IMG/VR virus record: IMGVR_UViG_3300018414_000007
Coordinates: 1-64,000 of that record
Reading direction: 5' to 3' (one strand)
Origin: a virus
DNA length: 64,000 nt
In this document: piece after piece, positions 36,305 through 61,573 of the stretch
How the letters are laid out: every line of letters starts with the position of its first letter
Numbering within the stretch: position 1 is the first letter of the stretch
The notes under the pieces: generated by a model
What the model was told of the DNA's origin: nothing
The model's input: only the letters and a program-made list of their open reading frames with translations
The model's database searches: none
Made by a program: the position numbers and the translations under genes

Positions 36305-38191
36305 ATAGAAAGTAAAATAAATTTTGTAGGTCCAGAGGATTTATACAAAGAGGAAGGTAATCAACTATATGATCTAAAATCTATAGAAGATTGCCTTTCT
36401 TGGTTAAAGACATTATCATCAGTATCTTTAGATACAGAAACAGAAGGATTTTTTAATTTTAAGAATAAAATTATAATGCTTCAGTTATCTGACGGTAAAG
36501 AAGTTTGGGTGATAGATGTAAGAGGAAAAGAATACTATAATAAGTTAAAACCTGTATTAGAAAGTATTTTAGTATTAGGTCAAAATTTAAAGTTTGATTA
36601 CAAATTCTTAAAATTTGAAGGAATAGAACTAAATAATATATATGATACATTCTTAGCTGAATGTGCTTTAACTAACGGTCTTACTGAAAGGCAATTAGGA
36701 TTAGGAGCTATTGCTAAGAAGTATTTAGATGTTAATTTAGATAAATCTGTTAGAAATCAATTTATAGGATTAGAAGGTAAACCCTTTACATTCAAACAAA
36801 TTATATATGGTGCAGAAGATGTACTGTATTTACATAAAATAAGAGAATTACAATTACAGAAAGCAGCAGAGTTAGATCTAGTAGATTATATACTATTAGA
36901 ATGTCAAGCTTGTCTTGCAATCAGTGATATTGAATATAATGGTCTTGGATTTAATCCTCAAGCTTGGTTAGATTTAGCTAAAAAGGTAAATAGTAATATA
37001 CCTCAGCTAGAATTAGAATTAGATCAGTTTATATTATCTGAACCAAAGAAGTATTATAAGTTTATTAACCAAACTCCTCAATTAGATATATTTGGAGGTG
37101 AAAGTAGAAGAGTATTAGTTGAATGGAGTAGTCCTACACAAATGCTTAAGCTACTTAAAGTAGTCTTAAATGATCCAAATTTAGAAAAGACTGAGGAAAA
37201 AGAAATTGCTAAATATCAATTTGATTATCCATTTATTAGTAAATTCATAGATTATAAGAAAGAAGCTAAACTTGCTTCTACTTATGGTGAAGATTTTATT
37301 AAGTATGTTAATCCTGTTACAGGTAGAATCCATAGTGATTTTTGGCAGATTCTAGTTACTAGTAGAGTTAGTTCTAATAATCCTAATTTACAAAACCTTC
37401 CAGCTAAAAATGATTATTTAAATTGTTTTGTAGCAGATAAAGGTAAGAAAATAATAGGTATAGATTACAAAGGACAAGAAGCAAGAATAGCTGCTTGTTT
37501 TAGTAAAGAAGCTACTTGGTTAGATGCTATTAAAGATGATAAAGACTTACATGGTGAAGTTGCTAAGCTTATGTTTAATATTACAGATGCTGAAGTAAGA
37601 AATAAACCAGATTTTCTTAGAGGTAAATCTTATAGAGATATAGCTAAGAATATTAACTTTATGGCTTTATTTGGTGGTACTAAATGGAAGTTAAGTAAAA
37701 TGCTTTTGTGTAGCTTAGATGAAGCTCAGGATCTATTAGACAGATACTTTTCTGCAACTAAGAACTTACAAGTATATTTAAATAAATGTGCTTCTTATGG
37801 CCTTAAAAGAGGTTATATAAGAAGTGGTAAACCATATAGTGCTATTAGATGGTTTGAGAATTGGAAAGAAAATTTAGATATTTATAAAGACTCTAAAATT
37901 ATTGGAGAAATTACAAGAAACTGTTTTAATAGTCCAATTCAATCTACTGCAGCTATTACTACTAAATTAGCATTAATTAAACTAAGAGATTATATAAAAG
38001 ATAATTCTTTGTCTAACAAAGTAAAGATTATTCATGTAGTTCATGATGCAATATATACTGAAGTAGATGATGATATTTGTAATGAATTTGCAGAAATTCA
38101 ATCAAATATAATGAAAAAGGCTGGTAAAGTATTCATACAAGATTTAATTATGGATACAGATATAACCATAGATATATATTGGAAAAAATAA
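36305..38191 (+). CDS. polA: family A DNA polymerase with 3'-5' exonuclease; true start upstream of the track start
   Basis: Frame open from 36302 includes ExoI SLDTETEG; ExoII GQNLKFD, ExoIII YGAED, motif A DYKGQEAR, motif B RDIAKNINF, motif C VHD. Confidence 0.9.
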   Translation: MESKINFVGPEDLYKEEGNQLYDLKSIEDCLSWLKTLSSVSLDTETEGFFNFKNKIIMLQLSDGKEVWVIDVRGKEYYNKLKPVLESILVLGQNLKFDYKFLKFEGIELNNIYDTFLAECALTNGLTERQLGLGAIAKKYLDVNLDKSVRNQFIGLEGKPFTFKQIIYGAEDVLYLHKIRELQLQKAAELDLVDYILLECQACLAISDIEYNGLGFNPQAWLDLAKKVNSNIPQLELELDQFILSEPKKYYKFINQTPQLDIFGGESRRVLVEWSSPTQMLKLLKVVLNDPNLEKTEEKEIAKYQFDYPFISKFIDYKKEAKLASTYGEDFIKYVNPVTGRIHSDFWQILVTSRVSSNNPNLQNLPAKNDYLNCFVADKGKKIIGIDYKGQEARIAACFSKEATWLDAIKDDKDLHGEVAKLMFNITDAEVRNKPDFLRGKSYRDIAKNINFMALFGGTKWKLSKMLLCSLDEAQDLLDRYFSATKNLQVYLNKCASYGLKRGYIRSGKPYSAIRWFENWKENLDIYKDSKIIGEITRNCFNSPIQSTAAITTKLALIKLRDYIKDNSLSNKVKIIHVVHDAIYTEVDDDICNEFAEIQSNIMKKAGKVFIQDLIMDTDITIDIYWKK

Positions 38192-38209: not shown

Positions 38210-39853
38210 ATGCAAATAAGAAATAAAAAAAGAAAGGCATTAGAAGCAGAAATACAAAGAGAAAAAGACCCCAACTTTAACCCTGTAGAACATATAGTAG
38301 TAAACTCATTAGAGTATATTTTTGGTAAAGATCCTTCTGAATGGGGGATTTTATGTAAACCAATTGAAACTGTAGTTTCATATATGTGGGAAGAAAAGAA
38401 AAGAAAGCCTTTACATAAAAGGTTAAAACCTAAAAAGAATTTTCCTACTAATAGTCCTTCTACTAGTTTTGAACCAGTAAGCGTAACTTTTAGTTCAGGA
38501 ACATCTACAATAATATCTTCAACACCTAGTTGGGAATTAACAGAATCTTCTGATCAAGAAGAATCAATTGTAGATATTGAATTTGATGGAGAAGAATCTA
38601 CTTCTATTACTGATCATGGTGTAATTACAGCTACTGATGCACAAAAATTTAATTACTATACTCATGATGCTAAGTTGTCAAATCTTAATCTTGGAGAATT
38701 ACAAGAGTATATAAATATATTATATAAGTATATTAATAAAGCTAACCAAAGAATAGAGCATTATAGTAATATAATGTTAACTAGTCCTAATCCTGCAATT
38801 AATGAATTAAGAAACAGTTCAATTTCAAATAGAGACGAACTTCTTAATAAATTAAATCTTATTAAAATCTATATAAGTAATTTTAAAGAAAGTGTTGTTA
38901 AACAACCATTAGAAGAGATAAATAAAAAGGAATCTTTTAATGATAAGATTAAACAGGGATTTAGATCTTTTTATTCAGCTACACTTGGATATCCTACTGT
39001 TATAAAGGGTTATATAATCAATGATAAAATATTTACTAATAATAGTGAATTAGCTTTATATGCAAGTACTAATAAAATACTTTGGGATCTTACAAAAATG
39101 ATTTTAAGGGTTTCAAGATTCAATTATGAAACAAATGAAATTGAAACTAAAACTAAAATTGTTTCATTTAAACCTTTAAGTAAAGTTAAAGAAAGTTTAA
39201 TACTTTCAGTACTACCTTTATTAGTAGATTTTAAAATCTGTTCATTTAAAAATAGTAACAATTTCTTTAATGATAAGATAGATAGAGAAAAGTTTCTTTA
39301 TACTAAAACTCCATTTTGGAAAGTTAAAACAGTTAAATCCTTAATTGGTAAAAACAGATTAAGTAATTCCGTAGTTTCTATTGAAAATCCAGATAAAGGA
39401 GATGAAATTTACTTTTTATTAGGTGATTGTAAAGTAGAAAATAAAGAACTTTGTGGTTATAGTATACCAATGGATAAGACTATAACTATAAATTCTATAG
39501 TAAAAGTAAAGGATAGTAAAATATCTAAATATAATTTAAAACAAGTAACAAATACAGAGGCTGAAGTTATCTCTATTAAACCAAATTCTTCTAGTAAAAA
39601 GATATCTAAGAATTCTAATAATCATAGATTGGATATTATAACTATTAGAAATAGATTTAAAGAGATGAAAGTCTATGCACAAGATCTAAAATTTATTAAA
39701 AACAAATCAATTAAAACAAATGACAGCAGTATTAAAAAAGAAAGTGGTAATAAAGAGCCTTACCACGGAATCTCCAAAGACTGGTTTGAAAGTACAATCC
39801 AAAATATCTACCAAAGTGAGTACATCCAATACACATCCAGTCCAAACTTCTAA
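38210..39853 (+). CDS. large hypothetical protein
   Basis: 547-aa ORF, no recognised motif. Confidence 0.6.
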   Translation: MQIRNKKRKALEAEIQREKDPNFNPVEHIVVNSLEYIFGKDPSEWGILCKPIETVVSYMWEEKKRKPLHKRLKPKKNFPTNSPSTSFEPVSVTFSSGTSTIISSTPSWELTESSDQEESIVDIEFDGEESTSITDHGVITATDAQKFNYYTHDAKLSNLNLGELQEYINILYKYINKANQRIEHYSNIMLTSPNPAINELRNSSISNRDELLNKLNLIKIYISNFKESVVKQPLEEINKKESFNDKIKQGFRSFYSATLGYPTVIKGYIINDKIFTNNSELALYASTNKILWDLTKMILRVSRFNYETNEIETKTKIVSFKPLSKVKESLILSVLPLLVDFKICSFKNSNNFFNDKIDREKFLYTKTPFWKVKTVKSLIGKNRLSNSVVSIENPDKGDEIYFLLGDCKVENKELCGYSIPMDKTITINSIVKVKDSKISKYNLKQVTNTEAEVISIKPNSSSKKISKNSNNHRLDIITIRNRFKEMKVYAQDLKFIKNKSIKTNDSSIKKESGNKEPYHGISKDWFESTIQNIYQSEYIQYTSSPNF

Positions 39854-40664
39854 AATTCCTACTTATCGTCCACAAGTAAGAAGTAGACATCCTTCACATA
39901 ATGGATTAAGGACATTATTAGCTAAATTACCTTTTAAATCTTTAATTAGATTTGGAAGTACTACCGAAGTAAATGATGGTATAAAAAGAGTAGAACTTAA
40001 TTCTCCTGAAGCTATTAGAAAAAGTAGTAATAAACTACTTATGAAACAAAGCTTCTCTGAAGGTAATGTTAAAACAGCAGATTGGACTAATCAAGTTGCT
40101 AATGTACCTGCAATTACAGAAAACTGGAAATATAAGTGTGTAATCAAAAAGCATTTTGGTAGTAGAGGTGAAGGTAATACTTTAGTATCTACTCAAAAGG
40201 AGTTTGATTTGTTTATGAAGGGTAAAAGTGCTTCTGAATATATATTTGAGAGATTCTATAATTATGATAGAGAATACAGACTTCATGTAAATGAAGATGG
40301 TTGTTATTATACTTGTAGAAAAGCATTAAAATCAGATACTCCAGAAAGCTCTAAATGGTTTAAAAATGATAGTAATTGTGTTTGGTATTTAGAAACTAAT
40401 CCAAGCTTTGATAAACCAGTAAATTGGGATAGTGTTGTTAGTCAGAGTGTTAAAGCTCTTAAAGCAGTAGGATTAGACTTTGGAGCAGTTGATTTGAGAA
40501 TTCAATCAGCTAAAGATTCAAAAGGTAGAGTTAGGGAAGATCCTGACTTTATTGTAATTGAAATTAATAGTGCTCCAAGTTTGAATGATAGTGAAAGTAT
40601 TGTATTTGCTAAATACTTAGAAGTACTTCCTACCATGTTAAAGAAAAAGTTTTTAAAAAGTTAA
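39720..40664 (+). CDS. ATP-grasp amide/peptide ligase
   Basis: RSRHPSH, IRFGSTT, KKHFGSRGEG, REYRLHV, GLDFGAVD, IEINSAPS. Confidence 0.88.
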   Translation: MTAVLKKKVVIKSLTTESPKTGLKVQSKISTKVSTSNTHPVQTSKIPTYRPQVRSRHPSHNGLRTLLAKLPFKSLIRFGSTTEVNDGIKRVELNSPEAIRKSSNKLLMKQSFSEGNVKTADWTNQVANVPAITENWKYKCVIKKHFGSRGEGNTLVSTQKEFDLFMKGKSASEYIFERFYNYDREYRLHVNEDGCYYTCRKALKSDTPESSKWFKNDSNCVWYLETNPSFDKPVNWDSVVSQSVKALKAVGLDFGAVDLRIQSAKDSKGRVREDPDFIVIEINSAPSLNDSESIVFAKYLEVLPTMLKKKFLKS

Positions 40665-40676
40665 TATAAAAGAATA

Positions 40677-41489
40677 ATGAATAAACATAAAAATTTTAAA
40701 GTATTTGTAGTAGGATTTAATACTGGCTACGCTAGGTGGATACAAGGTGAACTTGCTAAAAATATGAAAGAGGCTGATGTTGTTCTGTTTACAGGGGGAG
40801 AAGATATTTCTCCCTCTTTATACGGAGAAACAGCTGGAAGACATACATTTCCCTATGATAGACCAAATGGTCAATTACCTTTAAGAGATGAATTTGAGGT
40901 AAGGAATTATAAAGAAGCGTTAGAGTTAGGTAAACCTATGTGGGGTACTTGTAGAGGTGCTCAATTGTTATGTGCTTTAGCTGGTGGTAAATTAGTACAG
41001 GATATGAGTCATCATAGTTCTCATAAATTGTATTTCTATGATAATGAGTATGAGTGTGTAAGTAATACTTTACATCACCAAATGCAATATCCTTACACTA
41101 TGAAAGATGGTGAAGACTATAAAATCTTAGCTCATGCTATAGGTCAGAGCCCTTACTTCTTAGATGGTAATGATAAACCTCTTATTATGCCTGAAACAGT
41201 GAAAAAACAAGGATATGCTAAACCTCTTATTAAAGAACCAGAGTTTGTATATTATCCTAAAATTAAATCTTTAGGTATACAAGGACATCCTGAAATGATG
41301 TCTACTAATAGTGATATGGTTTTAGTATGTCATGCATTTTTAAATCTTTTGATAGAGGATAAGTTAAATGATGCTCTCCTTTTAAATATTCCTGTTAAAT
41401 CTATTATAAGTAGAGCTTGGGATTTTAATTTTACAAAAGAAGAAAATGCATTATTAAATCAAATTAAAGAAGTCCCTATCGAGGTATAA
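40677..41489 (+). CDS. class I glutamine amidotransferase-like / peptidase C26 (gamma-glutamyl hydrolase)
   Basis: FTGGEDISP, GTCRGAQ nucleophile, HHQ, GIQGHPE. Confidence 0.9.
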   Translation: MNKHKNFKVFVVGFNTGYARWIQGELAKNMKEADVVLFTGGEDISPSLYGETAGRHTFPYDRPNGQLPLRDEFEVRNYKEALELGKPMWGTCRGAQLLCALAGGKLVQDMSHHSSHKLYFYDNEYECVSNTLHHQMQYPYTMKDGEDYKILAHAIGQSPYFLDGNDKPLIMPETVKKQGYAKPLIKEPEFVYYPKIKSLGIQGHPEMMSTNSDMVLVCHAFLNLLIEDKLNDALLLNIPVKSIISRAWDFNFTKEENALLNQIKEVPIEV

Positions 41490-41490
41490 A

Positions 41491-42120
41491 ATGAAAGAAG
41501 TAACAATAGATAATATATTAGAGATTTTAAAAGAAGATATAGCAGGTTTAACTGAAGATAATAGAGAATCTACTATAGAAAAAATACAGTCTTATTTAAT
41601 TAAATTTAGTTTCTTAACAAAAATTCCAAATATATTATTTGTTTATGGAAGCTTAAGAAAAGGAGAATTTAATTTTAAAAAGATTCAAGAAACTTTTGGG
41701 GAAAATAGTATAATACATCTTTATCCTACAAGAGCAGATTATATGACTCTTTATGATTTAGGTGATTATCCTGTAATGATGAAGGCTAAAGGAACTTATC
41801 ATACATTTGGTGAATTAGTTTACTGTACTGATGAAGTAGTTGAAGTTATTAAACAAATGGAGTTAGAAGCAGGTTATCTATATGATACTTGTAATATATG
41901 GATTGAAAATAATAATAATCCATCTACAAAATATAGATTAATAAGTGTTCCTACTTATGTAGCAGGACCTCGCCTTAAAGATAAAATTTTCTTAAATCCA
42001 AGTACATATCCAAGAATTACTTGTGGAGACTGGAAAAAGTATTTAAAATCTGTAGAAATAGAAGATACAAGAACTGATTTAGAAAAATTGCAAGAATCTT
42101 ATTTTGGTTATTGCTACTAA
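41491..42120 (+). CDS. gamma-glutamyl cyclotransferase (GGCT/AIG2-like)
   Basis: LFVYGSLRKG, LYDLGDYP, GELVY, ME..GY, GDW. Confidence 0.85.
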   Translation: MKEVTIDNILEILKEDIAGLTEDNRESTIEKIQSYLIKFSFLTKIPNILFVYGSLRKGEFNFKKIQETFGENSIIHLYPTRADYMTLYDLGDYPVMMKAKGTYHTFGELVYCTDEVVEVIKQMELEAGYLYDTCNIWIENNNNPSTKYRLISVPTYVAGPRLKDKIFLNPSTYPRITCGDWKKYLKSVEIEDTRTDLEKLQESYFGYCY

Positions 42121-42135
42121 ATTAAATATATATAA

Positions 42136-42975
42136 ATGAAAATAAAAATTGATAATTGGAAAATAGGTTCTGATCCAGAAGTTTTCCTTCATAATAAAAG
42201 TACAAAAGAAGTAGTATCTGCAATTCCCTTTATTCCGGGAGATAAACATGATCCATACCAAATACCTACATTACCAGAGGGTCATATGATTCAAACTGAT
42301 AATATAATGGTAGAGTATTGTTTACCTCCTACAAGTGATTATAGGGCTTTAATTAAGTCTTTTAGAGACTGTATAGCATATACTAATAATACTATACCAA
42401 GTGAATTAGAAGTGGTTGTTAAAGCTTCTGCAAATGTAAGTGAACAATACTTACAAGATGAACAAGCTAAAAGATTTGGATGTGATCCAGATTTTAATGC
42501 TTGGACAGATGATTTAAACAATCCTCCTAATAGTGATACTAATCTTAGAACTTGTGGTGGTCATATCCATATTGGCTATGATAATCCAGACTATGAACTT
42601 TCAAAGAAATTAATTAAAGCGTTAGATATATTTTTAGGTGTTCCATCTATTCTTTTAGATCCTGATAAAGATAGAAAGAAAATGTATGGTAAAGCTGGTG
42701 CACATAGGTTAAAAACTTATGGTGTAGAATATAGAGGTTTATCTAATTTCTGGTTGGCAGAAGAAGAATTAACTCAGTTAGTATTTAATGGAGTTAGAAT
42801 GGCCATTGCTATGATTAATAGTTCTGAATCTTACTTAGATAAGATGAGTGATACATTACAGTTAAAGATTCAAACTTGTATTAATACAGGAGACGAAGAG
42901 TTAGCTCAACAACTTGTACATCAACTTAGTTTATCTAGTTTATTGGCTGGTTCTACTAAAGTATATATTGACTAA
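42136..42975 (+). CDS. phiEco32-type COOH-NH2 ligase (type 2)
   Basis: IGSDPEVF, DNIMVEY, FGCDPDFNAW, LRTCGGHIHIG, RKKMYGKAG..R...YGVEYR.LSNFW. Confidence 0.9.
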   Translation: MKIKIDNWKIGSDPEVFLHNKSTKEVVSAIPFIPGDKHDPYQIPTLPEGHMIQTDNIMVEYCLPPTSDYRALIKSFRDCIAYTNNTIPSELEVVVKASANVSEQYLQDEQAKRFGCDPDFNAWTDDLNNPPNSDTNLRTCGGHIHIGYDNPDYELSKKLIKALDIFLGVPSILLDPDKDRKKMYGKAGAHRLKTYGVEYRGLSNFWLAEEELTQLVFNGVRMAIAMINSSESYLDKMSDTLQLKIQTCINTGDEELAQQLVHQLSLSSLLAGSTKVYID

Positions 42976-43090
42976 TTAAAGAAACTTAAGAGTAGTGATA
43001 GCCTTGAGTTCGCTTTAGTTACTAATTTATTGGTAGCCTCCGGCTATCCTACTTTTAAATTAAATAAAACAAATATGTGTGGATTAATAT

Positions 43091-43121
43091 TTTGATGTGT
43101 GGATTATATTCACTATCTTTG
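43091..43121 (+). promoter_or_regulatory. Bacteroidota-type promoter for HNH gene
   Basis: TTTG-N19-TATCTTTG, 5 nt before ATG 43127. Confidence 0.75.
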
Positions 43122-43126
43122 TATTA

Positions 43127-43657
43127 ATGAAAATATGTAAAAAATGTAATGTTGAAAAATCTCTAGGAGAGTTTCACAAAGATAAAAGAACTAAGGATGG
43201 ATTATATAAATGGTGTAAATCTTGTAAAAAAGAGTATGATTTAATATACAGAAAAACAGATAAAATTCAAAATTTATATAAGTCTAAAGAGTATAGAAAT
43301 AGAAAAAAGGAATATAAAAAATGGAGAGATATGACTGATCCAAGAGAACAACTTTTAATATCTGCTAAAGCTAGGGCTAAAAAGTATAATATACCTTTTA
43401 ATTTAACTATAGATGATATAGAATTAAGAGCTTATTGCCCTTTATTGGAAATTAAATTAGAAAGAAAACAATATGGAAAGGTGGGTTCATTTAATCCAAA
43501 TTCCCCTTCTTTAGATAGAATAATTCCTAGTTTAGGTTATGTAAAAGGAAATATAGAGGTAATTTCAATGAAAGCAAATATAATGAAAAATAACGCAAGT
43601 ATAGAAGAATTAAAAACATTTGCGAATAATATATTAAGGTGGTATGATTATGATTAA
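43127..43657 (+). CDS. homing-endonuclease-like protein (Zn finger plus HNH-like)
   Basis: CKKC..CKSC; CPLL..SPSLDRI.PSLGYVKGNIEVIS.KANIMKN. Confidence 0.85.
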   Translation: MKICKKCNVEKSLGEFHKDKRTKDGLYKWCKSCKKEYDLIYRKTDKIQNLYKSKEYRNRKKEYKKWRDMTDPREQLLISAKARAKKYNIPFNLTIDDIELRAYCPLLEIKLERKQYGKVGSFNPNSPSLDRIIPSLGYVKGNIEVISMKANIMKNNASIEELKTFANNILRWYDYD

Positions 43658-45248
43658 AATAATATTAATATTAGCATTTATAAATTATTTGCTATACTTC
43701 CTTAATGGAAGAAAAAAGACTAATTTAGCTCTTTGTGGCTTAATTGGTTACTCTGGACAAGAGAACTATAATATAGACAAAATAAGGTTTCTAATGCTAT
43801 GGAATAGTGTAGAAAGAGGTAAAGATGCTACAGGCATATATACCCCCTCAACAGGACTTATAAAAGATAATGAACCTGCTGGTAAGTTTCTATTTCAAAG
43901 TCATTTTAAAAAATTAGTTGATGATAATCAATTAATAGCTCATGTAAGAGCTAAAACAATTGGAGCAAATTTAGTTAAAAACGCTCATCCATTTGATGAA
44001 GAGAATATTGTATTAGCTCATAATGGTACTTTAGTTGACTATGTAGCGTTAGCATCCAAATATGATATGAAAGCTCTTAATTGGGATGTAGATTCTCAAG
44101 TATTATCTTTTGGTATTAATAGAGCATTTAATGCTGAAACTACTTTAGATAACTTAAATATTGAAACTTTAAGTGAATATAAAGGTGCTGCTGCTTTACT
44201 ATTTTATAGTAAAAACTTAGATATGATATTTGTATTTAAGGATAAAGAGAGACCTTTATTTTATGGGTATGATCTTGATGGAGGAATGTATATGTCTTCT
44301 ATTGAAGAGTCATTAAAAGCTGCAGGATTATTTGAAATTAAAGCGTTTACTGATAATACTTTGTATGCTATTGATCATGGTGAAATTGTAAAGACTTGGG
44401 TTTATAAAACCTATGCTGAACTTAATAAAACAGCTTATGTTGGTAAAGTTCGAGGGAGGGAACCAGGTCAGAGATTCCCAAAGTTAAAAAAAGGGGAAAG
44501 AGGAATAGACATCACAAATGGAACCACTAAAGCATATTGGTTCTTAGATATGTGGCTATATTCTAATACCCAAACATGGAATCATCAAAGAGGAATCTAT
44601 GGTAAGTTTGCTGAAATGAAAACTGGAAGGTTTTATTTAGTAACTGGATTCTATGCTGAAGATATAATGTTTGTTCAGGTAAAAGATGAGAATGGAAATG
44701 ATGGAATGGCAGCCTTAAGTTCATTTGATATAGATAGGTGTATTCCTCAACCTGAACAGTTATTTAGAATAACGGCTCCCCTTGTTGCTAAAAAGACAAA
44801 ACAAAAACTTTGGGAAAAAGGACAAATAGTTGAATTGATGAGTTATGATATAACAGAAGGATCAGTTTCTTTCTGGTCTGATTCAGAAAATGCAGAATAC
44901 GAAATTCCTATGAAGTGTTGTAAACCATTAACACCTCAAGAAGTTATAGATTTCTGCTTAGAAACAGAAGATCCTAAAGATAAAGGAACTAAAGAACCAT
45001 TACTTATTCAACCCGCTCCTGAACCATCACCTTTTATAGAAAATACACCTGAGCCTGAACCTTTAGGAGATTTCATATCAACTCCAGTATTCTTGGGAGC
45101 TTTGGAATTAATTGAAAGTGGATTAGGTAAATTAGAAGAAAAGTATGATGAAAATGGAGATTTAACCCCAGAAATTAATGCTATACGTATGGACATCACA
45201 AATTGCAAAGATAAGACATATCTTGACAACTTACTGGTACATAATTAA
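43650..45248 (+). CDS. class II (Ntn) glutamine amidotransferase-like protein with N-terminal hydrophobic extension
   Basis: CGLIG, RGKDATG, AHVRAKT, NAHPF, AHNGTL, VDSQ, RPL. Confidence 0.85.
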   Translation: MIKIILILAFINYLLYFLNGRKKTNLALCGLIGYSGQENYNIDKIRFLMLWNSVERGKDATGIYTPSTGLIKDNEPAGKFLFQSHFKKLVDDNQLIAHVRAKTIGANLVKNAHPFDEENIVLAHNGTLVDYVALASKYDMKALNWDVDSQVLSFGINRAFNAETTLDNLNIETLSEYKGAAALLFYSKNLDMIFVFKDKERPLFYGYDLDGGMYMSSIEESLKAAGLFEIKAFTDNTLYAIDHGEIVKTWVYKTYAELNKTAYVGKVRGREPGQRFPKLKKGERGIDITNGTTKAYWFLDMWLYSNTQTWNHQRGIYGKFAEMKTGRFYLVTGFYAEDIMFVQVKDENGNDGMAALSSFDIDRCIPQPEQLFRITAPLVAKKTKQKLWEKGQIVELMSYDITEGSVSFWSDSENAEYEIPMKCCKPLTPQEVIDFCLETEDPKDKGTKEPLLIQPAPEPSPFIENTPEPEPLGDFISTPVFLGALELIESGLGKLEEKYDENGDLTPEINAIRMDITNCKDKTYLDNLLVHN

Positions 45249-45258
45249 AGAATATATA

Positions 45259-46911
45259 ATGTTAGAAGAGATAAAAACAAAAGAAGAATTAAAAAACAAA
45301 AAAGATTTTCTTTTAAAGAACCCATTTCATCCTAATAAGTTTATATACGCCGAAGAAGGAGAATCTCCTAAAGAGATTGTAATAATTAATGGAAGAGGAT
45401 ATGATGTAGATAAAAGTAATTTATCAGAAGATTTTTACCATCCTGGGTATTTCTTTTTGGCTGGAACAGGAGCAATGCTTGCGTTTGTTACTGCTACTAA
45501 AGCTAGAAGAGTGTTTGATCCAGAAAACCCTGAAACCTGGTGTCAAATAGTTTCTGAGTACAAACCTTCTAAAGAAAGGTATAAGAACGTTGAAACATCT
45601 GATTATGAAACTTATAATGCTTCTCTTAAAAAGATTATTTCACAAGCTTATGGTGAATTAAAACCAGTATCTAATACAGAAGAGGAGTTATTAAACTTAA
45701 GTTTTGTAAAAGGAACTGTTAATCCTGATTTTTGGTTTCCTTTACAAGAAAAACAACATTTAGACAAGATGTTACCTTATAAAAAGTTTGAAAATATATA
45801 TCACAAGGTTGATATAAATGATCTTGAGCATCAAATGAGATCTCAAGGATACCCAGAAGAAGAAATAAAGAAAAGAATAACAGAAGCTTTACAAAAGAAT
45901 ATTTTGTATGGTGTTGACTCTTTAACTTACACAGCTTTTGAAGGAATAAGATTTACATTTGGTGTTGAAATTGAGACTTGTATTGGAAGACTTGATGATG
46001 ATCAAATTAAATTTTTAAATGTTAAAGCAGTTCATGATGGTTCTCTAAGAGATAAAAATGGTAATACTCCTGGTGGAGAATATGTTACTGGTGTATTAAC
46101 TGGAGATGCTGGATTGACTCAATTAAGTGACTTATGTAGAGCTTTGTCTTCTAAATGTAGAGTAAATGCTCAGTGTGGAGTTCACGTTCATGCAGGAAGT
46201 TTAAATTGGAATAGAGAAGATATTGTTTATTCTTATATTTTAGCAGAAATGTTAGAAGATGAGTTATTTATGATGCTTCCTAAATCAAGAAGAAGTAATA
46301 CTTACTGTAGAAGATTAACTGAACTTACTTTAGATAAAGTTCCTTTGTTAAAAACAGCAGTTAGATCTGAATATAATATTCTTATAGATACAATCTATAA
46401 TGATATTTTGAAAGAAGTAACTCAAGTTAAAAATAAAGGTAAAATATATTCTGGAGTAGAAGAAGGAGTAGAAGAACCAATAATTGCTAGTGGGATTTAT
46501 AACAGAGAAAAGCAACATCCAAATGGAGCTAAATGTGGTTATGATAAATCTGCACAAAGATATTGTTGGTTAAACTATGTTACTCTTATGTATAATACTA
46601 AAGGGGGTAAAAATAGTAACACTTTAGAGATTAGAAGTCATAGTGCTACAATGAATTTCAAAAAGATAAAGAATTGGATTAAGATTTTCTTTGCTTTTTG
46701 TAAGTATGTAGAAACTAGTAAATCTAAGATTAGAAAAGGAAATGTAACTCTTGCTCATGTAATTAAAAAGGCATATCCTAAAACTGGAGATAAACTTCTT
46801 AAGTATATTGAAGAAAGAAAACAAGTGTTTAATTCTCATGATGAGTCTGTAGATTATGTAGAAATCTCAGAAGAAAGAAAGACTATAAAGGAGATAGTAG
46901 CAGCAGAATAA
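45259..46911 (+). CDS. putative amidoligase (glutamine-synthetase-fold COOH-NH2 ligase)
   Basis: FGVEIET, HDGSL, GGEYVT, CGVHVH, SRRSNTYC, RY.WLN, TLEIRSH. Confidence 0.88.
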   Translation: MLEEIKTKEELKNKKDFLLKNPFHPNKFIYAEEGESPKEIVIINGRGYDVDKSNLSEDFYHPGYFFLAGTGAMLAFVTATKARRVFDPENPETWCQIVSEYKPSKERYKNVETSDYETYNASLKKIISQAYGELKPVSNTEEELLNLSFVKGTVNPDFWFPLQEKQHLDKMLPYKKFENIYHKVDINDLEHQMRSQGYPEEEIKKRITEALQKNILYGVDSLTYTAFEGIRFTFGVEIETCIGRLDDDQIKFLNVKAVHDGSLRDKNGNTPGGEYVTGVLTGDAGLTQLSDLCRALSSKCRVNAQCGVHVHAGSLNWNREDIVYSYILAEMLEDELFMMLPKSRRSNTYCRRLTELTLDKVPLLKTAVRSEYNILIDTIYNDILKEVTQVKNKGKIYSGVEEGVEEPIIASGIYNREKQHPNGAKCGYDKSAQRYCWLNYVTLMYNTKGGKNSNTLEIRSHSATMNFKKIKNWIKIFFAFCKYVETSKSKIRKGNVTLAHVIKKAYPKTGDKLLKYIEERKQVFNSHDESVDYVEISEERKTIKEIVAAE

Positions 46912-48503
46912 TGTGTTTATTAATCGCAGTAAAGTCAGGAGTAGATAAGTCTAGTGACATCCTCTTTGACGCTATAAGAACAGGAGCTACTACTAATACA
47001 GATGGAATTGGGTATGCATTTAAAAAAAGCAAACAAAATAAAATTTGGATTAGTAAAGGTTTTCAAGATGTAGATAAATTCATTACAACTCTACAAAAGA
47101 AGCACTTAAAACCAGAAGATGAACTTATTGTTCATTTAAGAATTGGTAATAAGGGTGCTAAAACTGTTGAAATGAATCATCCATTTGTTATATCTGATGA
47201 TGCTGATACAATTTTATCTAATGATGAATATGTACAGCTTCCAGTACTTGCACATAATGGTACTTTTCATAGTTACTCCATAACTAATAGTCAACTATCA
47301 GATACATTCTATTTTACTAAAGACTTTATGTCTATTCCAGAAATACAAAGTCTTCTGAAAAGAGATACAGATACTTTTAAAAGAATCTTTACTTCTACAC
47401 TGGGAATTAATAGACTAGCTCTATTATTCCCAGATAATACTCCACTAATAACACTTGGTAACTTTATTGAATCAGAAGGATATTTATTTTCTAATGAATC
47501 ATATAAGAAAAAGGTGTATAATGTTGGAGGATATGAAAGTTGGGATGATGAAAGGTATGCTACTAGTCGTGGTGGTGGACAAAATATATCTGATGGATGT
47601 TGGCAAAATGGAGTGTACCACAGTGGAAGTAAATACCCAGTAACACATTCTAGTATTCCAATTAATACTCCACATAAAGATACTAAATGGTTAGATAGAG
47701 ATGATGAAGATGAAGATGTTGTTATTGCTAATAAGAAGTTTTGTAAAGTAGGAGAAAGAAAAAGAGATGTTAGGGGCTTTTTACAAGCTGATCCTAAGTT
47801 TGATATTATTCCTCCAACAACTCCATTTTGGTGTATATTTAACAAAGCTACTAAACAATGGTATGATTCAACTGAAGGAAATATAGCTTATGTACCTCGT
47901 GCATATCCTGTTAATCAGTTTGATAGAACATTCTTTACTCCAACAGTATTTAACTATACTCATTTCACCTATTATAGTCCAATAGGAGATTCAATAAAAG
48001 GGATAAATCCTACAAAAAGATATCGTATTTATAACTTTGATTCTAGAGATCCTAGAGGAGCTACTTCAAAAGGTGTACATTTAGTTAATGAAATAAATTC
48101 TTATAAAAATGGTGAACCTCTTTATGGTACAACTGTTAGATCTTTGTGGTTAACTACTGAATCTTTAGTAGAACTATTTATACCTCAGTTAGAATCACCA
48201 AAACTAACATTAGCTTATAGAACTCTCTATAGACTTATGCATAGATTTAGCACCCCTTCTAAGAATTTAATGAATGCTACTGAGAAAGCTATCAGAGGAG
48301 CTGAAAAGAATGGAAAAGAATCTAATATTAACTTTAAGAATCAACAAGGATTAGAGTTATTAGGATTGAAGTTATTCTATAATTATTTATTAATAGACCT
48401 TCTTCCTTTTGATCAAGCTAGATTGAAATTTCTTGAAGTTCAAGATTTAACTCCAGACAATACAGTTTCTTATAAAGAAGCTTTAGAAGCATTAAATAAT
48501 TAA
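46911..48503 (+). CDS. second class II glutamine amidotransferase-like protein
   Basis: N-terminal MC, NTDGIG, HLRIGNKG, NHPF, AHNGT, SDT, FSN. Confidence 0.85.
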   Translation: MCLLIAVKSGVDKSSDILFDAIRTGATTNTDGIGYAFKKSKQNKIWISKGFQDVDKFITTLQKKHLKPEDELIVHLRIGNKGAKTVEMNHPFVISDDADTILSNDEYVQLPVLAHNGTFHSYSITNSQLSDTFYFTKDFMSIPEIQSLLKRDTDTFKRIFTSTLGINRLALLFPDNTPLITLGNFIESEGYLFSNESYKKKVYNVGGYESWDDERYATSRGGGQNISDGCWQNGVYHSGSKYPVTHSSIPINTPHKDTKWLDRDDEDEDVVIANKKFCKVGERKRDVRGFLQADPKFDIIPPTTPFWCIFNKATKQWYDSTEGNIAYVPRAYPVNQFDRTFFTPTVFNYTHFTYYSPIGDSIKGINPTKRYRIYNFDSRDPRGATSKGVHLVNEINSYKNGEPLYGTTVRSLWLTTESLVELFIPQLESPKLTLAYRTLYRLMHRFSTPSKNLMNATEKAIRGAEKNGKESNINFKNQQGLELLGLKLFYNYLLIDLLPFDQARLKFLEVQDLTPDNTVSYKEALEALNN

Positions 48504-48542: not shown

Positions 48543-48803
48543 ATGGAAAATTTAGCATCAATCCTTATTGGTATAGCATTAATTGCAGCAGGAATACTGT
48601 CTTATTGGTTATTTAAACCAAAAGATAAGAAGTCTATAGATAGTAATACACCTATTGAAGTAGATGAAAAGAAAGCTGAAGTAACTGAAGCAATTGTGAC
48701 AAAACCAAAGAGAGTGTATAAGAAAAAAGTAGCAAAAGAAGAGGAGATTAGTGGAGAAGGAGAAAGTTTACCAAGTACAACAGAAGGAGGACAGCAATCT
48801 TAG
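48543..48803 (+). CDS. membrane-anchored small protein
   Basis: N-terminal TM, KPKRVYKKK tail. Confidence 0.55.
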   Translation: MENLASILIGIALIAAGILSYWLFKPKDKKSIDSNTPIEVDEKKAEVTEAIVTKPKRVYKKKVAKEEEISGEGESLPSTTEGGQQS

Positions 48804-55543: not shown

Positions 55544-56083
55544 ATGAAGAATTGTATCATATGTAAAGAAGTACAGCCATTAGATAACTTTTATAAACAT
55601 AAGGGTATGTCTGATGGCTTACTTAATAAATGTAAGTCTTGTTGTAAAAATCAGAGTAAGAAAAGAGAAAAGTTTCTAAGATTAAATAATCCTGAATGGG
55701 TTAAAAAGGATAGAAATAGGTGTAGATTAAAATTTCATAGGCTTAGTAAAAATTGGAAACAGCCCTCTGTAGAAGTTAAAAGAAAGAGAAATATGAATTA
55801 TAAAAAGAATTATCCAGAAAAATATGCTGCTCATTTAGCTTGTAAAAATTTAATCAAAGGAGATTCAAGTAATCACTTACACCATTGGTCTTATAATGAA
55901 CAACATTATACAGATTGTATTGAACTAAATTCTGAATGTCATAATTATGTACATAGATTTATCATATATGATCAAGAGTATATGATGTATAGAACTATAG
56001 ATAATAAACTTTTAGATACAAAGGAAAAGCATTTGGATTATATAAATCAATGTTTTAAAGACAATTTAATTAATAAACTTTGA
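55544..56083 (+). CDS. HNH homing-endonuclease-like protein
   Basis: CIIC..CKSC Zn finger; HLHHWSY..CH..VH. Confidence 0.8.
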   Translation: MKNCIICKEVQPLDNFYKHKGMSDGLLNKCKSCCKNQSKKREKFLRLNNPEWVKKDRNRCRLKFHRLSKNWKQPSVEVKRKRNMNYKKNYPEKYAAHLACKNLIKGDSSNHLHHWSYNEQHYTDCIELNSECHNYVHRFIIYDQEYMMYRTIDNKLLDTKEKHLDYINQCFKDNLINKL

Positions 56084-60566: not shown

Positions 60567-60779
60567 ATGTTAGAAATTGAATCATTATCTTCTATAGCAG
60601 AAACAAAAGTAGAAAACATTGAGAAGGAGTTATCTTCAAGACAAAAAACAATTTTAAAAAATAGAATTGAAAAGAACTCTAAAATTACTTTAAAAAGAGC
60701 AGTTAAACAACTAGGTAAAAGAAGAGTTAATAAAATTATAAAAGCAGTTAGAACTGTTATAAATAATAAAAATATATGA
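60567..60779 (+). CDS. basic hypothetical protein
   Basis: ORF track. Confidence 0.5.
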   Translation: MLEIESLSSIAETKVENIEKELSSRQKTILKNRIEKNSKITLKRAVKQLGKRRVNKIIKAVRTVINNKNI

Positions 60780-61573
60780 TAGACACAGCAGAACTAGATG
60801 AACTAGTTATGAACAAAATATTAGGTAAGCCTAATAAAGTAATTATTCCTAAAGATGTAAAGGTTATAGATTCTTTTAGAAGAAAGGGATTAAATGAAGG
60901 AAGAGATCATGGCTTAGGTTATTCTATATTACATAAAGAGTCAGATACTGAATTTAAAGCGTTAATGGCATTTACAGCCTGTAAAGATTACTTAAATGAT
61001 TTTGTATATGTAGAAACAACTGGTAAATCTCTTAGTAGTATTTATGGATTTAAACATAATTATACTGGATTATTAAAAGGTAAAGAACATTTCTATCTTG
61101 GTTTAAGACCTTTAAACTATTTACACGGTTCTAAGTATTCTGGTTTTGAAGCAGTTAGTAATTCATTAAAAGATAATAATTCTAATATTATTAAGTATTT
61201 AAATAATCTTGAAGATAAATTTAAAGTTAATGGAAGAACAACATTTGAAACTTATACAGATGACATATTAATTCTGAAAGTTCCAATGTTTTGGATAAAA
61301 TTTCCTTTTATGTTTAGTTTATATGGATTATTAGTAAGATGCTTTTTAAATATAACTAAAGAAGAATTAGAAAAAGATCCAATTACAACTATTAATGACA
61401 AGAAGTCAACTGTAATAGTTGGAGATAACTCTTTATTAAGTTCTTTAAAAAACTATTTAGACTCTTTAAATCCTGATAAATTATTAGATTATCAATATCC
61501 AACAGATCCAAATAGTAGTTATATACATAATTTTGGGATTATTGGAAGATTAAATACAATAAAGAAAAAATGA
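60776..61573 (+). CDS. hypothetical protein (F..CKDYLND motif)
   Basis: ORF track; FTACKDYLNDFV, SLYGLLVR, IHNFGI. Confidence 0.6.
   Translation: MIDTAELDELVMNKILGKPNKVIIPKDVKVIDSFRRKGLNEGRDHGLGYSILHKESDTEFKALMAFTACKDYLNDFVYVETTGKSLSSIYGFKHNYTGLLKGKEHFYLGLRPLNYLHGSKYSGFEAVSNSLKDNNSNIIKYLNNLEDKFKVNGRTTFETYTDDILILKVPMFWIKFPFMFSLYGLLVRCFLNITKEELEKDPITTINDKKSTVIVGDNSLLSSLKNYLDSLNPDKLLDYQYPTDPNSSYIHNFGIIGRLNTIKKK

Follow-up and report, generated by a model that had tools for sequence, protein, structure and literature searches.

An intact phiEco32/LUZ24-type amidoligase cassette among the replication genes of an uncultured freshwater crAss-like phage

The window, which is the whole stretch of 64,000 nucleotides analysed here, contains at positions 39720-48503 an intact copy of the amidoligase cassette of phiEco32/LUZ24-PaP3-type phages (Iyer et al. 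2009). The phage that carries it is uncultured, from freshwater, and crAss-like by its major capsid protein, whose identity to Crassvirales capsids is 46-52%; the cassette lies in its replication module. The best overall explanation, and one that we hold with considerable confidence, is that this copy is complete and apparently functional, that its ligases and glutamine amidotransferases (GATases) are modular pairs, and that the first GATase is a precursor that needs cleavage.

A first-pass annotation of this DNA had presented the cluster as a seven-enzyme amide/peptide-ligase pathway in a crAss-like phage. The pathway is not new to such phages; it is a known cassette to which the window copy adds a few fresh clues. 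The gene set, present in hundreds of phages, was reported on sequence grounds in 2009. Annotations of it already exist for the crAss-like phage cr108_1, for PaP3 and for Cronobacter phage A24, and PMC3890496 lists it for UFV-P2. The annotation was correct that similar clusters had been described computationally (Iyer et al. 2009 is cited for the cassette in PMC10580990 and PMC4431377), and, in line with what it said of products, no paper identifying one was found in the literature searched.

Gene Content and Setting

Seven co-oriented, nearly contiguous enzyme genes make up the cassette, in this order:

39720..40664, + strand: ATP-grasp carboxylate-amine ligase, RimK/MptN-like (phrog_2599, E 5.8e-36)
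40677..41489, + strand: class I GATase/peptidase C26, gamma-glutamyl hydrolase type (Pfam Peptidase_C26, E 5.2e-17)
41491..42120, + strand: gamma-glutamyl cyclotransferase (GGCT), AIG2/GGACT-like (Pfam GGACT, E 8.2e-13, residues 49-182)
42136..42975, + strand: phiEco32-type COOH-NH2 ligase, GCS2/glutamine-synthetase-like superfamily (PF14395, E 2.4e-16; phrog_3815, E 8.5e-70)
43734..45248, + strand: class II (Ntn) glutamine amidotransferase a (Pfam GATase_6, E 1.6e-12, ORF 43644-45248)
45259..46911, + strand (ORF open from 45178): Amidoligase_2, a glutamine-synthetase-fold ATP-dependent amide ligase (PF12224, E 1.6e-12; phrog_2443, E 1e-20)
46911..48503, + strand: second, divergent Ntn GATase-II paralogue (b) with a Met-Cys start (97.2% probability and E 4e-11 when aligned by hhalign with the family of GATase-II a)

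Judging from these families, the three ATP-dependent carboxylate-amine ligases would make amide bonds, and the two Ntn GATases, the C26 GATase-I and the GGCT would either use glutamine as a source of ammonia or cleave amides of the gamma-glutamyl type. This content fits the "ligase plus eraser" logic of the first-pass annotation, with C26 and GGCT as removers of gamma-glutamyl bonds. Its description of seven intact, contiguous enzyme genes was borne out as to families and catalytic residues, but "contiguous" ignores an HNH insertion, and the nucleophile of GATase a is masked. The HNH gene, the Cys31 behind a leader, the SH3-like barrels and the hairpin after the ligase gene, all described below, were absent from it.

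The family-invariant residues are kept in all seven enzymes, and none of the catalytic sites is degenerate on alignment. In the ATP-grasp ligase K105, E185, R187, K201, D258 and E281 are invariant among relatives and N283 is kept in at least 90% of them. A profile built from 53 relatives aligns with ATP-grasp ligases of solved structure, RimK among them over the full length (E 5e-8), and the match to NCBIfam rimK_fam (E 8.9e-10) is below cut-off. The ORF shares 134 nt with the upstream gene, g0; its true start is probably GTG 39816 or ATT 39855, because homologues align only from about residue 41-49. C92 and H204-P205-E206 of the C26 protein are kept in at least 98% of 70 relatives. The GGCT, which carries a 48-aa N-terminal extension, has the motif Y52-G53-x-L55 and E124 (at least 91% of 37 relatives), and the COOH-NH2 ligase has E15, E60, H143, H145, E198 and R200 (98-100% of 73 relatives).

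The amidoligase residues E264, E266, D287, S289, E301, H336, H338, E484 and R486 are invariant in 60 relatives; a search with its profile gave no solved relative by sequence, and the model of its N-terminal ~225 aa (pLDDT 68) gave no fold match. GATase-II b matches Pfam GATase_4 only at E 0.0022, which is below cut-off, and yet M1, C2, H75, R77, H115, N116, G117 and D131 are invariant in 15 relatives. An Atlas search with its C-terminal ~330 aa, of unknown fold, returned no usable lead. The earlier statement that three of the enzymes have extra domains with no recognised motif thus applies to these two, but the extra domain of GATase a has an SH3-like lead.

The cassette is surrounded by genes for DNA polymerase, RNR and dUTPase, and its place in a replication/nucleotide-metabolism module is shared with the copies of cr108_1 and PaP3. 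The reported position between DNA polymerase and RNR is right, but a 547-aa protein, g0, and an 86-aa ORF also lie in this interval. Such a setting could point to hypermodification, in which an amino-acid-derived group is placed on a base or nucleotide to escape restriction; amino-acid-decorated thymidines exist in other phages. However, none of the 30 + strand genes of 35546-63147 (all compared with PHROGs and 10 of them also with Pfam) was found to encode a base-hydroxymethylase, nucleotide kinase, DNA transglycosylase or glycosyltransferase, and a nucleic-acid-binding domain is not recognisable in any of the seven enzymes. We regard this reading as improbable.

The HNH Insertion and the First GATase

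Four further features lie between the COOH-NH2 ligase and the body of GATase a:

42994..43051, + strand: conserved hairpin RNA/DNA element, then a T-run, just 3' of the COOH-NH2 ligase stop codon
43075..43127, + strand: two tandem mini-ORFs, MCGLIF-stop and MCGLYSLSLY-stop, which repeat the canonical 5' end of a GATase-II gene
43127..43657, + strand: free-standing HNH/EndoVII-type homing endonuclease gene (phrog_1035, E 1.6e-32; phrog_3322, E 2.6e-32)
43644..43733, + strand: hydrophobic leader of 30 residues, either a pro-peptide or a membrane anchor, that runs straight into the GATase-II a catalytic Cys

For the hairpin, RNAalifold on the window and loci L005-L007 predicts 19 pairs, of which 8 show compensatory changes; the GAGTTCGCTTTA loop is invariant. 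The HNH gene sits between the hairpin and the GATase-II gene and interrupts the cluster; it is missing from the corresponding position in L005, L006 and L007, and its tblastn matches are HNH endonucleases of unrelated phages. An intron model search of 42900-43900 gave no match. Within the window, the mini-ORF 12-mer occurs at 43075 and 43095 only, and the HNH-less relatives have neither mini-ORF. Probably, the mini-ORFs are scars that were brought in with the HNH gene.

In GATase-II a the Cys nucleophile stands at residue 31 of the ORF, not at residue 2, behind a leader with a Kyte-Doolittle 19-residue mean of 2.3-2.4. This arrangement might suggest decay, i.e., that the HNH insertion severed the GATase from its Met-Cys start and left a dead glutaminase: two mini-ORFs beginning Met-Cys-Gly-Leu lie 5' of the HNH gene, and the body begins with Cys at codon 31 with no start codon before it. 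However, the leader is orthologous to those of HNH-less relatives, being nearly identical in sequence to the leaders of L006 and P0002, and equivalent leaders are present in L005, L007, L009, L014, L018, L020 and L070 as well. In L009, L014 and L020 the leader ORF opens 3-16 nt past the ligase stop, again with no start codon before the Cys. Among the 150 nearest cluster representatives, 68 have a hydrophobic leader of 23-55 aa right before Cys-Gly and 78 start with Met-Cys. In addition, the HNH gene stops at the very point at which the leader ORF opens, and so the GATase gene is whole, and the glutamine-binding residues are all conserved (conserved positions are C31, R58, H100-x-R102, N127-G128 and D150). 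These observations contradict decay, which we consider very improbable; by sequence comparison the leader is a lineage trait and not damage from the HNH gene.

We predict instead a precursor form of the first GATase. With its catalytic Cys behind a membrane-type leader, the enzyme would have to be cut before it could hydrolyse glutamine, and with the leader uncleaved it would be unable to act as a glutaminase. Cleavage would most likely be autocatalytic, as in PurF; Ntn hydrolase precursors such as glutamine PRPP amidotransferase self-cleave in cis, according to PMC3207474.

GATase-II a is laid out as an Ntn domain (residues 31-255), one or more SH3-like barrels (~299-428) and a helical tail (475-533). 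Its profile matches PurF in the PDB (1e-22), and its AF2 model (mean pLDDT 78) aligns in VIA-align with PurF (Z 27.2), the GlmS glutaminase domain (Z 25.7) and EgtC (Z 22.4). Residues 299-368 align with SH3 domains at Z 7-9.5 and residues 299-428 with Spt5 KOW2-3 at Z 7.1 (VIA-align), both in a middling range that is common by chance. As a lead from the model, then, the extra domain may be an SH3-like barrel, an adaptor-type fold rather than a synthase domain.

The leader and the barrel bear on the acceptor. The GATase-amidoligase pair might amidate or gamma-glutamylate a lipid-linked peptidoglycan or other envelope precursor, such as the peptidoglycan stem peptide, close to the membrane. If so, the surface of the infected cell would be altered, giving superinfection exclusion or protection from lysin. 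Bacterial SH3-like folds often bind peptidoglycan, and glutamine-dependent amidation of stem peptides is carried out by MurT/GatD and LtsA/AsnB1. The transmembrane-like leader of the 68 representatives agrees with this, and the Atlas row "endopeptidase Spr" for the extra domain (TM 0.35) is a weak hint. Also, Iyer et al. are reported, in PMC10580990, to have proposed a cell-wall modification preventing superinfection for phiEco32. However, hydropathy places a membrane segment in no other cassette protein of the window, the GATase would be untethered once its leader was removed, 78 of the 150 representatives lack a leader, and the linked genes include no Mur-ligase, transpeptidase or flippase. 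An envelope acceptor is a tentative proposal with perhaps a third of our belief.

Gene Order and a Proposed Mechanism

The comparison covered 82 loci, counted once three repeats had been removed: 79 are from IMG/VR, and the others are the window, cr108_1 and PaP3. All were retrieved via the COOH-NH2 ligase or the amidoligase, many are close relatives and some are cut by contig ends. GATase-II is present in 82, the amidoligase in 79, C26 in 73, ATP-grasp in 69, GGCT in 44 and the second GATase in 17. The ligase/GATase-II/amidoligase triad occurs in 79 of the 82, so the enzymes are co-conserved, and neither this comparison nor the residue alignments refute the first-pass annotation; six families are found together in 37 loci and all seven in 11. 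Only four loci, the window and L005-7, have the exact gene order of the window.

GATase-II adjoins the amidoligase in 79/79 loci, and the second GATase, where present, always directly follows it (17/17). C26 adjoins the COOH-NH2 ligase in 62 of 73 loci and GGCT adjoins ATP-grasp in 32 of 44; since C26 also adjoins ATP-grasp (49/61), the enzyme pairs are not unique. As far as gene order alone can tell, the constant GATase-II/amidoligase adjacency suggests a glutamine-dependent amidation unit. The searches found no fused amidoligase-GATase protein, which is weak evidence.

From this order we infer that the cassette operates in modules. The Ntn GATase and the amidoligase would form a two-part glutamine-dependent amidotransferase, in which ATP-dependent activation of a carboxylate by the amidoligase would be followed by its conversion to the amide, with ammonia that the GATase frees from glutamine; alternatively, the GATase could strip a gamma-glutamyl group that the amidoligase installed. 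C26 with the COOH-NH2 ligase, and GGCT with the ATP-grasp enzyme, would each add a glutamyl group and then remove it, by analogy with the add-then-remove pairs PuuA/PuuD, EgtA/EgtC and BtrJ/BtrG.

A further reading is small-molecule metabolism, in which a gamma-glutamyl amide or short peptide would be built and trimmed with a polyamine, an amino acid or a glutamylated cofactor (folate/pterin-type) as its carrier, and the product would support replication or nucleotide synthesis. The ATP-grasp protein is nearest to RimK/MptN-type alpha-L-glutamate ligases and, among NCBIfam models, C26 is nearest to gamma-glutamyl-CDP-amidate hydrolase and PuuD, all far below cut-off. GGCT enzymes act on free gamma-glutamyl amines, and the surrounding DNA polymerase, RNR and dUTPase genes agree with such a role. 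On the other hand, SH3-like adaptor barrels and extra domains that are large and variable would be more usual in enzymes docking on macromolecules, the lineage-specific g0, uA, u226 and u311 suggest protein partners or substrates, and no transporter or precursor-supply genes are linked. We hold a small-molecule product to be about as probable as an envelope acceptor, and likewise less likely than not. By inference only, we rank the acceptors as envelope precursor, small metabolite, protein and, last, nucleotide or DNA.

Accessory Proteins

Three other genes in the window are relevant here:

38210..39853, + strand: g0, a 547-aa protein of unknown fold, lineage-specific upstream partner between DNA polymerase and the cluster
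48543..48803, + strand: 86-aa ORF, by hydropathy with a transmembrane helix at its N terminus, and with a charged tail; it precedes the RNR gene
60776..61573, + strand: displaced homologue of the accessory family u226 (iterated HMM, E 3e-67)

The proteins g0, uA, u226 and u311 are lineage-specific partners of the cassette, and hhalign detected no homology among accessory proteins of different clades (probabilities of 2.6% or less). They bear on a third acceptor, a host or phage protein to which the ligases attach glutamate or a short peptide and from which the hydrolases remove it. RimK, the tubulin ligases and Pup ligase, which add glutamate or peptides to proteins, would be the model, and the full-length RimK alignment, the SH3-like barrels (classic peptide-binding modules) and the clade-specific proteins that always accompany the cassette are consistent with it. 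In its favour too, PMC4431377 argues that host proteins may be targets of phage ATP-grasp ligases. Against this, the usual substrates of GGCT and C26 enzymes are small gamma-glutamyl compounds, the window showed no conserved acidic-tail substrate candidates, and accessory proteins without detected homology between clades imply no common cassette-encoded protein substrate. Protein tagging strikes us as rather unlikely.

By iterated HMM, g0 is directly 5' of the ATP-grasp gene in nine loci including the window (L023 and L024 are mutual duplicates), with conservation limited to its C-terminal, beta-rich ~200 aa. The 86-aa ORF is a doubtful member of the cassette; among 15 further loci checked, only L006 has a comparable small membrane ORF 3' of the second GATase. 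Searches of Pfam, PHROGs, NCBIfam and PDB sequences matched neither g0 nor the u226 homologue. The u226 family occurs within or beside the cassette in L003, L023, L032, L034, L041 and L080-83, and from its invariant residues (C69, D71, Y90, H251 and G254) the window homologue may be a Cys/His enzyme.

Gene layout and phage lineage

The genes of the cassette lie in a tightly packed row, all on the + strand, and the row is flanked by a DNA polymerase gene and a B12-type ribonucleotide reductase (RNR) gene.

Genes of the cassette and its flanks, with the basis of each assignment
36476-38191, + strand: DNA polymerase (phrog_17, E 6.5e-87)
39720-40664, + strand: ATP-grasp ligase (Pfam/PHROGs)
40677-41489, + strand: peptidase C26/class I GATase, here C26 (Pfam/PHROGs)
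41491-42120, + strand: GGACT-type gamma-glutamyl cyclotransferase, here GGCT (Pfam/PHROGs)
42136-42975, + strand: PF14395 COOH-NH2 ligase (Pfam E 2.4e-16; phrog_3815 E 8.5e-70)
43127-43657, + strand: HNH/EndoVII-type endonuclease (Pfam/PHROGs)
43644-45248, + strand: class II GATase, the first GATase (Pfam/PHROGs)
45178-46911, + strand: PF12224 Amidoligase_2 (Pfam/PHROGs)
46911-48503, + strand: GATase-II-like protein, the second GATase (hhalign to the first GATase family)
48751-50646, + strand: B12-type ribonucleotide reductase (phrog_367, E 1.5e-122)

The phage is crAss-like, as judged from its crAss-type major capsid protein (phrog_11589, E 7e-133), which is 46-52% identical to the capsids of cr118_1, cr6_1 and other Crassvirales. 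A megablast of the entire cluster against GenBank phages gave no match. The ATP-grasp, C26 and GGCT genes are linked and co-oriented in this genome. There is no ATG in the ATP-grasp gene near the place where its homologues begin; the candidate starts (39816-39857) are a GTG at 39816 and an ATT at 39855, the latter directly 3' of the TAA stop of the upstream gene. In NCBIfam, the ATP-grasp protein is nearest to the RimK/MptN alpha-L-glutamate ligases and the C26 protein to gamma-glutamyl-CDP-amidate hydrolase and PuuD, all with scores far below the cut-offs of the models.

A known cassette in a crAss-like variant

The first-pass annotation reported an amide-ligase enzyme cluster in a crAss-like phage. 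That cluster is real and was well described, and it is an already known cassette in a variant of the crAss-like lineage: as judged from sequence, it has the PF14395 and PF12224 proteins, the latter with an adjoining class II GATase, and the linked ATP-grasp, C26 and GGCT genes of the phiEco32-type phage amidoligase cassette. This phiEco32/LUZ24-PaP3-tf-type cassette was reportedly described by Iyer, Abhiman, Burroughs and Aravind in 2009 (Mol Biosyst). According to a passage in a later paper, Iyer et al. suggested a cell-wall-modifying, superinfection-blocking role for it in phiEco32 (PMC10580990). Few phage enzyme sets that lack a known product are as widespread as this cassette. Its COOH-NH2 ligase is present in 318 phage database records and a relative is encoded in 365 IMG/VR stretches, and a full-text literature search found no experiments on the product of any member.

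The phiEco32/LUZ24-PaP3-type cassette has the same six families as the window (COOH-NH2 ligase, Amidoligase_2, class II GATase, ATP-grasp, class I GATase and GGCT), and both are co-oriented and located in the early/replication module of a podovirus-type phage. The window adds a second Ntn GATase after the amidoligase, a hydrophobic leader on the first GATase and a lineage-specific partner named g0, a 547-aa protein encoded upstream of the ATP-grasp gene. In PaP3 the COOH-NH2 ligase, amidoligase, GATase-II, ATP-grasp and GGCT are in one block, and Cronobacter phage A24 has the same block. However, the PaP3 order (COOH-NH2 ligase, orf47, amidoligase, GATase-II, ATP-grasp, GGCT) differs from that in the window, and in both PaP3 and A24 the ligase is preceded by two proteins of about 300 aa without assigned function that are absent from the window. 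For the LUZ24-like phages, these Pfam families are listed in the UFV-P2 paper (PMC3890496).

Another comparison is provided by the crAss-like phage cr108_1 (NC_055878.1, Steigviridae), in which gp028-gp034, in a replication module, include an ATP-grasp protein, a class I GATase, a COOH-NH2 ligase, a GATase-II and an amidoligase that are 25-41% identical to those in the window. The existing annotation of cr108_1 already names the ATP-grasp, amidotransferase, COOH-NH2 ligase and GATase. Unlike the window, cr108_1 has two extra proteins (gp029 and gp030, family uA) and its GATase starts with Met-Cys; it also has no second GATase, no HNH gene and, in the fetched locus, no GGCT.

Conservation of gene content and order

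Loci were fetched by means of the COOH-NH2 ligase alignment, their ORFs were called and iterated HMMs were built for each family. After three repeat fetches were dropped, the sample consisted of 82 loci, i.e., the window, cr108_1, PaP3 and 79 IMG/VR loci; each had been chosen because it contains the ligase or the amidoligase, many are close relatives and several are cut by contig ends. With these limits, GATase-II is present in 82 loci, the amidoligase in 79, C26 in 73, ATP-grasp in 69, GGCT in 44 and the second GATase in 17. Six families occur together in 37 of the 82 and all seven in 11, and the exact gene order of the window is found in four (the window and the IMG/VR relatives L005, L006 and L007).

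Two adjacencies have no exceptions. GATase-II adjoins the amidoligase in all 79 loci that hold both, the window included, and the second GATase directly follows the amidoligase in 17 of 17. The other pairings are looser: C26 adjoins the COOH-NH2 ligase in 62 of 73 loci, and ATP-grasp adjoins GGCT in 32 of 44, but it also adjoins C26 in 49 of 61. No fused amidoligase-GATase protein was found among the longer proteins searched, which is weak evidence.

Active sites of the enzymes

Each protein was aligned with its relatives from 80 IMG/VR loci, and the residues that define the active site of each cassette enzyme are conserved among them. In the first GATase, R102, N127, G128 and D150 do not vary across 62 sequences. 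Its AlphaFold model has a mean pLDDT of 78, and residues 31-255 superpose on PurF with a Z of 27.2 (rmsd 2.2 over 219 residues), on the GlmS glutaminase domain with a Z of 25.7 and on EgtC with a Z of 22.4. Thus, the protein is predicted to have both the Ntn fold and the glutamine-binding residues (Arg, an Asn-Gly oxyanion hole and Asp) of a class II GATase. The second GATase is more divergent, with a Pfam GATase_4 match under the cut-off and PDB sequence matches of only E 0.03. Even so, it can be assigned to the class II GATase family by homology to the first GATase family (hhalign probability 97.2%, E 4e-11) and by its Met-Cys start, since M1 and C2 are invariant in 15 sequences.

The catalytic motifs had been called intact, and that claim stands because the active-site residues are conserved and the model of the first GATase superposes on PurF, GlmS and EgtC; the one reservation is the masked cysteine of the first GATase. 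The first-pass annotation had also staked its reading on co-conservation in relatives and on catalytic residues that are not degenerate, and neither a lack of the one nor a loss of the other was seen in the 82 loci or in the alignments.

The HNH gene and its surroundings

The cluster had been described as contiguous, a description that overlooked both the HNH gene and the masked cysteine. One explanation for the HNH gene would be that it resides in a self-splicing intron, with an upstream Met-Cys-Gly-Leu as exon 1. We rejected this because no intron model matched and because the GATase gene of the relatives is complete in unspliced form; a cmscan of 42900-43900 for intron covariance models, with E up to 10, gave two chance-level matches, neither of them intron-related. 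Only one DNA sequencing run (X1), and no RNA run, is listed as containing this sequence; the run may be where the DNA of the window came from, and its contigs contained no HNH-less form of the site.

Just 5' of the HNH gene (43075-43127) are two tandem mini-ORFs, MCGLIF* and MCGLYSLSLY*, both of which begin with ATG TGT GGA TTA (43075 and 43095). GATase-II genes canonically begin with this 12-mer, which occurs nowhere else in the window. The mini-ORFs are probably scars left by the endonuclease when it homed out of a phage whose GATase started with Met-Cys-Gly-Leu. Similar interruptions of cassette genes by mobile-type ORFs occur elsewhere. For example, an LAGLIDADG-type ORF splits the amidoligase in one relative (L009:13270-13992), and reverse-strand ORFs split the C26 gene in two others (L016:8823-9446 and L059:8722-9453, both - strand). 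In UFV-P2, an HNH gene separates the amidoligase gene from that of the GATase (PMC3890496). Homing endonucleases appear to have targeted the cassette repeatedly. At 55544-56083, in the replication module, there is a second gene for an EndoVII/HNH-like endonuclease (phrog_2340, E 1.4e-7).

Directly 3' of the stop codon of the COOH-NH2 ligase there is a conserved hairpin (42994-43051), which is also found in L005 (10817-10870), L006 and L007. It has 19 predicted pairs, eight of which show compensatory changes, in only four sequences, and it contains an invariant GAGTTCGCTTTA internal loop; a T-run follows the hairpin. It may serve as a terminator or attenuator between the two halves of the cassette. 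In L005, the closest IMG/VR relative, a small and very hydrophobic ORF (10890-11128) separates the hairpin from the GATase gene, which has the leader.

A hydrophobic leader on the first GATase

The comparators that have a canonical GATase-II gene all begin with Met-Cys-Gly. In the first GATase of the window the cysteine is codon 31 (43734) and is preceded by a CTT codon; Cys31 would become N-terminal only after cleavage of the predicted leader. The end of the HNH gene coincides with the start of the leader ORF, and therefore the GATase gene is whole. Eight relatives (L005, L006, L007, L009, L014, L018, L020 and L070) have no HNH gene at this site, yet they have a hydrophobic prefix directly before Cys-Gly, with a length of 23-33 residues in the seven that were read out in full. 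In L009, L014 and L020 the prefix ORF starts 3-16 nt past the ligase stop codon.

To survey the leader more broadly, 1.84 billion cluster representatives were searched and the best 150 matches to the first GATase were examined. Among these 150, 78 begin with Met-Cys and 68 have a hydrophobic leader of 23-55 residues; of the remaining four, one is truncated and three have prefixes that are very short or not hydrophobic. We reject the idea that the HNH insertion created the leader as an artefact, because the HNH-less relatives and 68 of the 150 best matches have one. For the nearest relative of the GATase, cluster representative P0001 (60% identical), no encoding locus was found in IMG/VR, and a metagenome scan for it gave one unrelated 3-kb contig.

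The catalytic cysteine of B. subtilis PurF and of other class II GATase precursors (MEROPS C44) is likewise behind a removable N-terminal peptide. The known class II GATase propeptides are short and polar. The leaders described here differ from that of PurF in being longer (median 29 residues), in being transmembrane-like, in having basic residues after the hydrophobic core (67 of the 68; the charge before the core is net positive in four) and in having Leu at position -2 (53 of the 68). The residue at position -1 varies and includes Tyr (27 of the 68), Gly (13), Phe (eight) and His (three). It is never Ile, Leu or Met, and for this reason a near-cognate start at -1 is ruled out. The charge distribution and the -1 residue of these 68 leaders also speak against a Sec or lipoprotein signal peptide, which would have a positively charged n-region before the core and a small residue at -1 (lipobox). 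The leader sequence resembles that of a reverse signal-anchor or of an inhibitory pro-peptide. A literature search found no paper on this leader. Precursors of Ntn hydrolases, among them glutamine PRPP amidotransferase, are stated to cleave themselves in cis (PMC3207474), and because of this precedent self-activation in cis would be the likeliest route for its removal.

An 86-aa ORF (48543-48803) between the second GATase and RNR genes encodes an N-terminal transmembrane helix and then a charged tail. The end of its helix (...LFKPKDKK) resembles the leader ends of the L005 and L007 GATases (...IFKPKPG). A small membrane ORF at this place is not conserved; among 15 further loci checked it was found in L006 only.

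Extra domains

Past the Ntn domain, the model of the first GATase has a beta-rich part at residues ~300-430 (pLDDT 75-89) and then a helical tail. Residues 299-368 match many SH3 domains, with Z scores from 9.5 (63 residues, rmsd 1.8) down to ~7, where values below 8 are common by chance; the tandem KOW domains of Spt5 superpose on residues 299-428 with a Z of 7.1, and the Atlas matches include SH3 families with a TM of 0.27-0.35. Because these scores are middling, we treat as a lead the prediction that the extra domain is an SH3-like, adaptor-like barrel rather than a synthase domain. If the lead holds, it would mean that the first GATase has no synthase domain of its own, which fits a glutaminase that serves the adjoining amidoligase.

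The N-terminal ~225 residues of the amidoligase are poorly conserved (14% mean column identity), and the PaP3-like branch lacks this region. Its model has a pLDDT of 68, and no match was found by Foldseek at E <= 0.001 or by VIA-align at Z >= 5; the amidoligase profile likewise found no solved relative by sequence. The second GATase has a ~330-residue tail, which it shares with part of its family (10 of 16 members have it), and an Atlas search with its C-terminal part gave no usable lead.

How the cassette might work

By homology, the cassette is shown to encode three predicted ATP-dependent amide-bond makers and four predicted enzymes that hydrolyse glutamine or gamma-glutamyl amides. PuuA/PuuD (putrescine), EgtA/EgtC (ergothioneine) and BtrJ/BtrG (butirosin) are pairs that add and later remove a gamma-glutamyl group. 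We take their ligases (GS-like, GCS2-like and ATP-grasp, respectively) to belong to the same superfamilies as the cassette ligases, and their hydrolases (C26, Ntn GATase-II and GGCT) to the cassette families. The partners are combined differently, however, in that gene order here places GATase-II beside the GS-like amidoligase, and the GCS2-like ligase has C26 as its partner.

Gene order suggests three units. The core unit would be GATase-II and the amidoligase, with the second GATase added in the lineage of the window; C26 and the COOH-NH2 ligase might form the second unit, and ATP-grasp and GGCT the third. The last two presumably resemble PuuA/PuuD and BtrJ/BtrG. The core unit would best be explained as either a two-part glutamine-dependent amidotransferase or a gamma-glutamyl add-then-remove pair like EgtA/EgtC. 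The first of these would be the same chemistry as that of MurT/GatD and LtsA/AsnB1, in which a ligase and a glutaminase carry out glutamine- and ATP-dependent carboxylate amidation in peptidoglycan. Their folds differ from those of the cassette (a Mur ligase with a class I GATase, and an AsnB-type enzyme), and no homology is claimed.

As for the acceptor, the leader and the SH3-like barrels tilt us slightly toward a membrane-proximal envelope precursor, and a small metabolite or a protein is nearly as likely. DNA is the least likely target, because no gene for a hypermodification route was found among the 30 + strand genes scanned. One specific scheme, which we consider improbable as a whole, places the cassette at the inner face of the membrane. 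The Ntn glutaminase would be a zymogen tethered by its reverse signal-anchor leader, and it would cut itself free at the conserved Leu-(Tyr/Gly/Phe)|Cys-Gly junction, thereby switching on amidation of a lipid-linked envelope precursor of the infected cell by the GATase and amidoligase, with docking through the SH3-like domain. If true, this scheme would for the first time show where in the cell a phage pathway unsolved since 2009 acts, and offer a first way to test it.

Several features of the variant are worth recording: the second Ntn paralogue and g0, the masked nucleophile and putative SH3-like adaptor of the first GATase, the hairpin conserved after the ligase gene, and the probable scars of the HNH gene. 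They do not reveal the product. The copy in the window leaves the overall picture unchanged but sharpens what to test, and it could narrow the search for the substrate: GATase-II and the amidoligase always travel together (79/79 loci), a large branch of the GATases has a predicted removable, membrane-type leader, and the extra domain of the first GATase may be an adaptor-like barrel.

Accessory proteins

The partner families g0, uA, u226, u311 and PaP3 orf47/49/50 have no Pfam match, and those scanned in PHROGs or NCBIfam (not every family in every library) had no match there either; u226 and g0 had none in PDB profile searches. Remote homology of these proteins to one another or to the known enzymes was rejected, since all hhalign probabilities were <=2.6%. 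In the window, a 265-aa member of the u226 family is encoded at 60776-61573, 12 kb downstream of the cassette. The family is inside the cassette in L003, L023, L032, L034, L041 and L080-83. Because Cys69, Asp71, Tyr90 and His251 are invariant, u226 may be an unrecognised Cys/His hydrolase.
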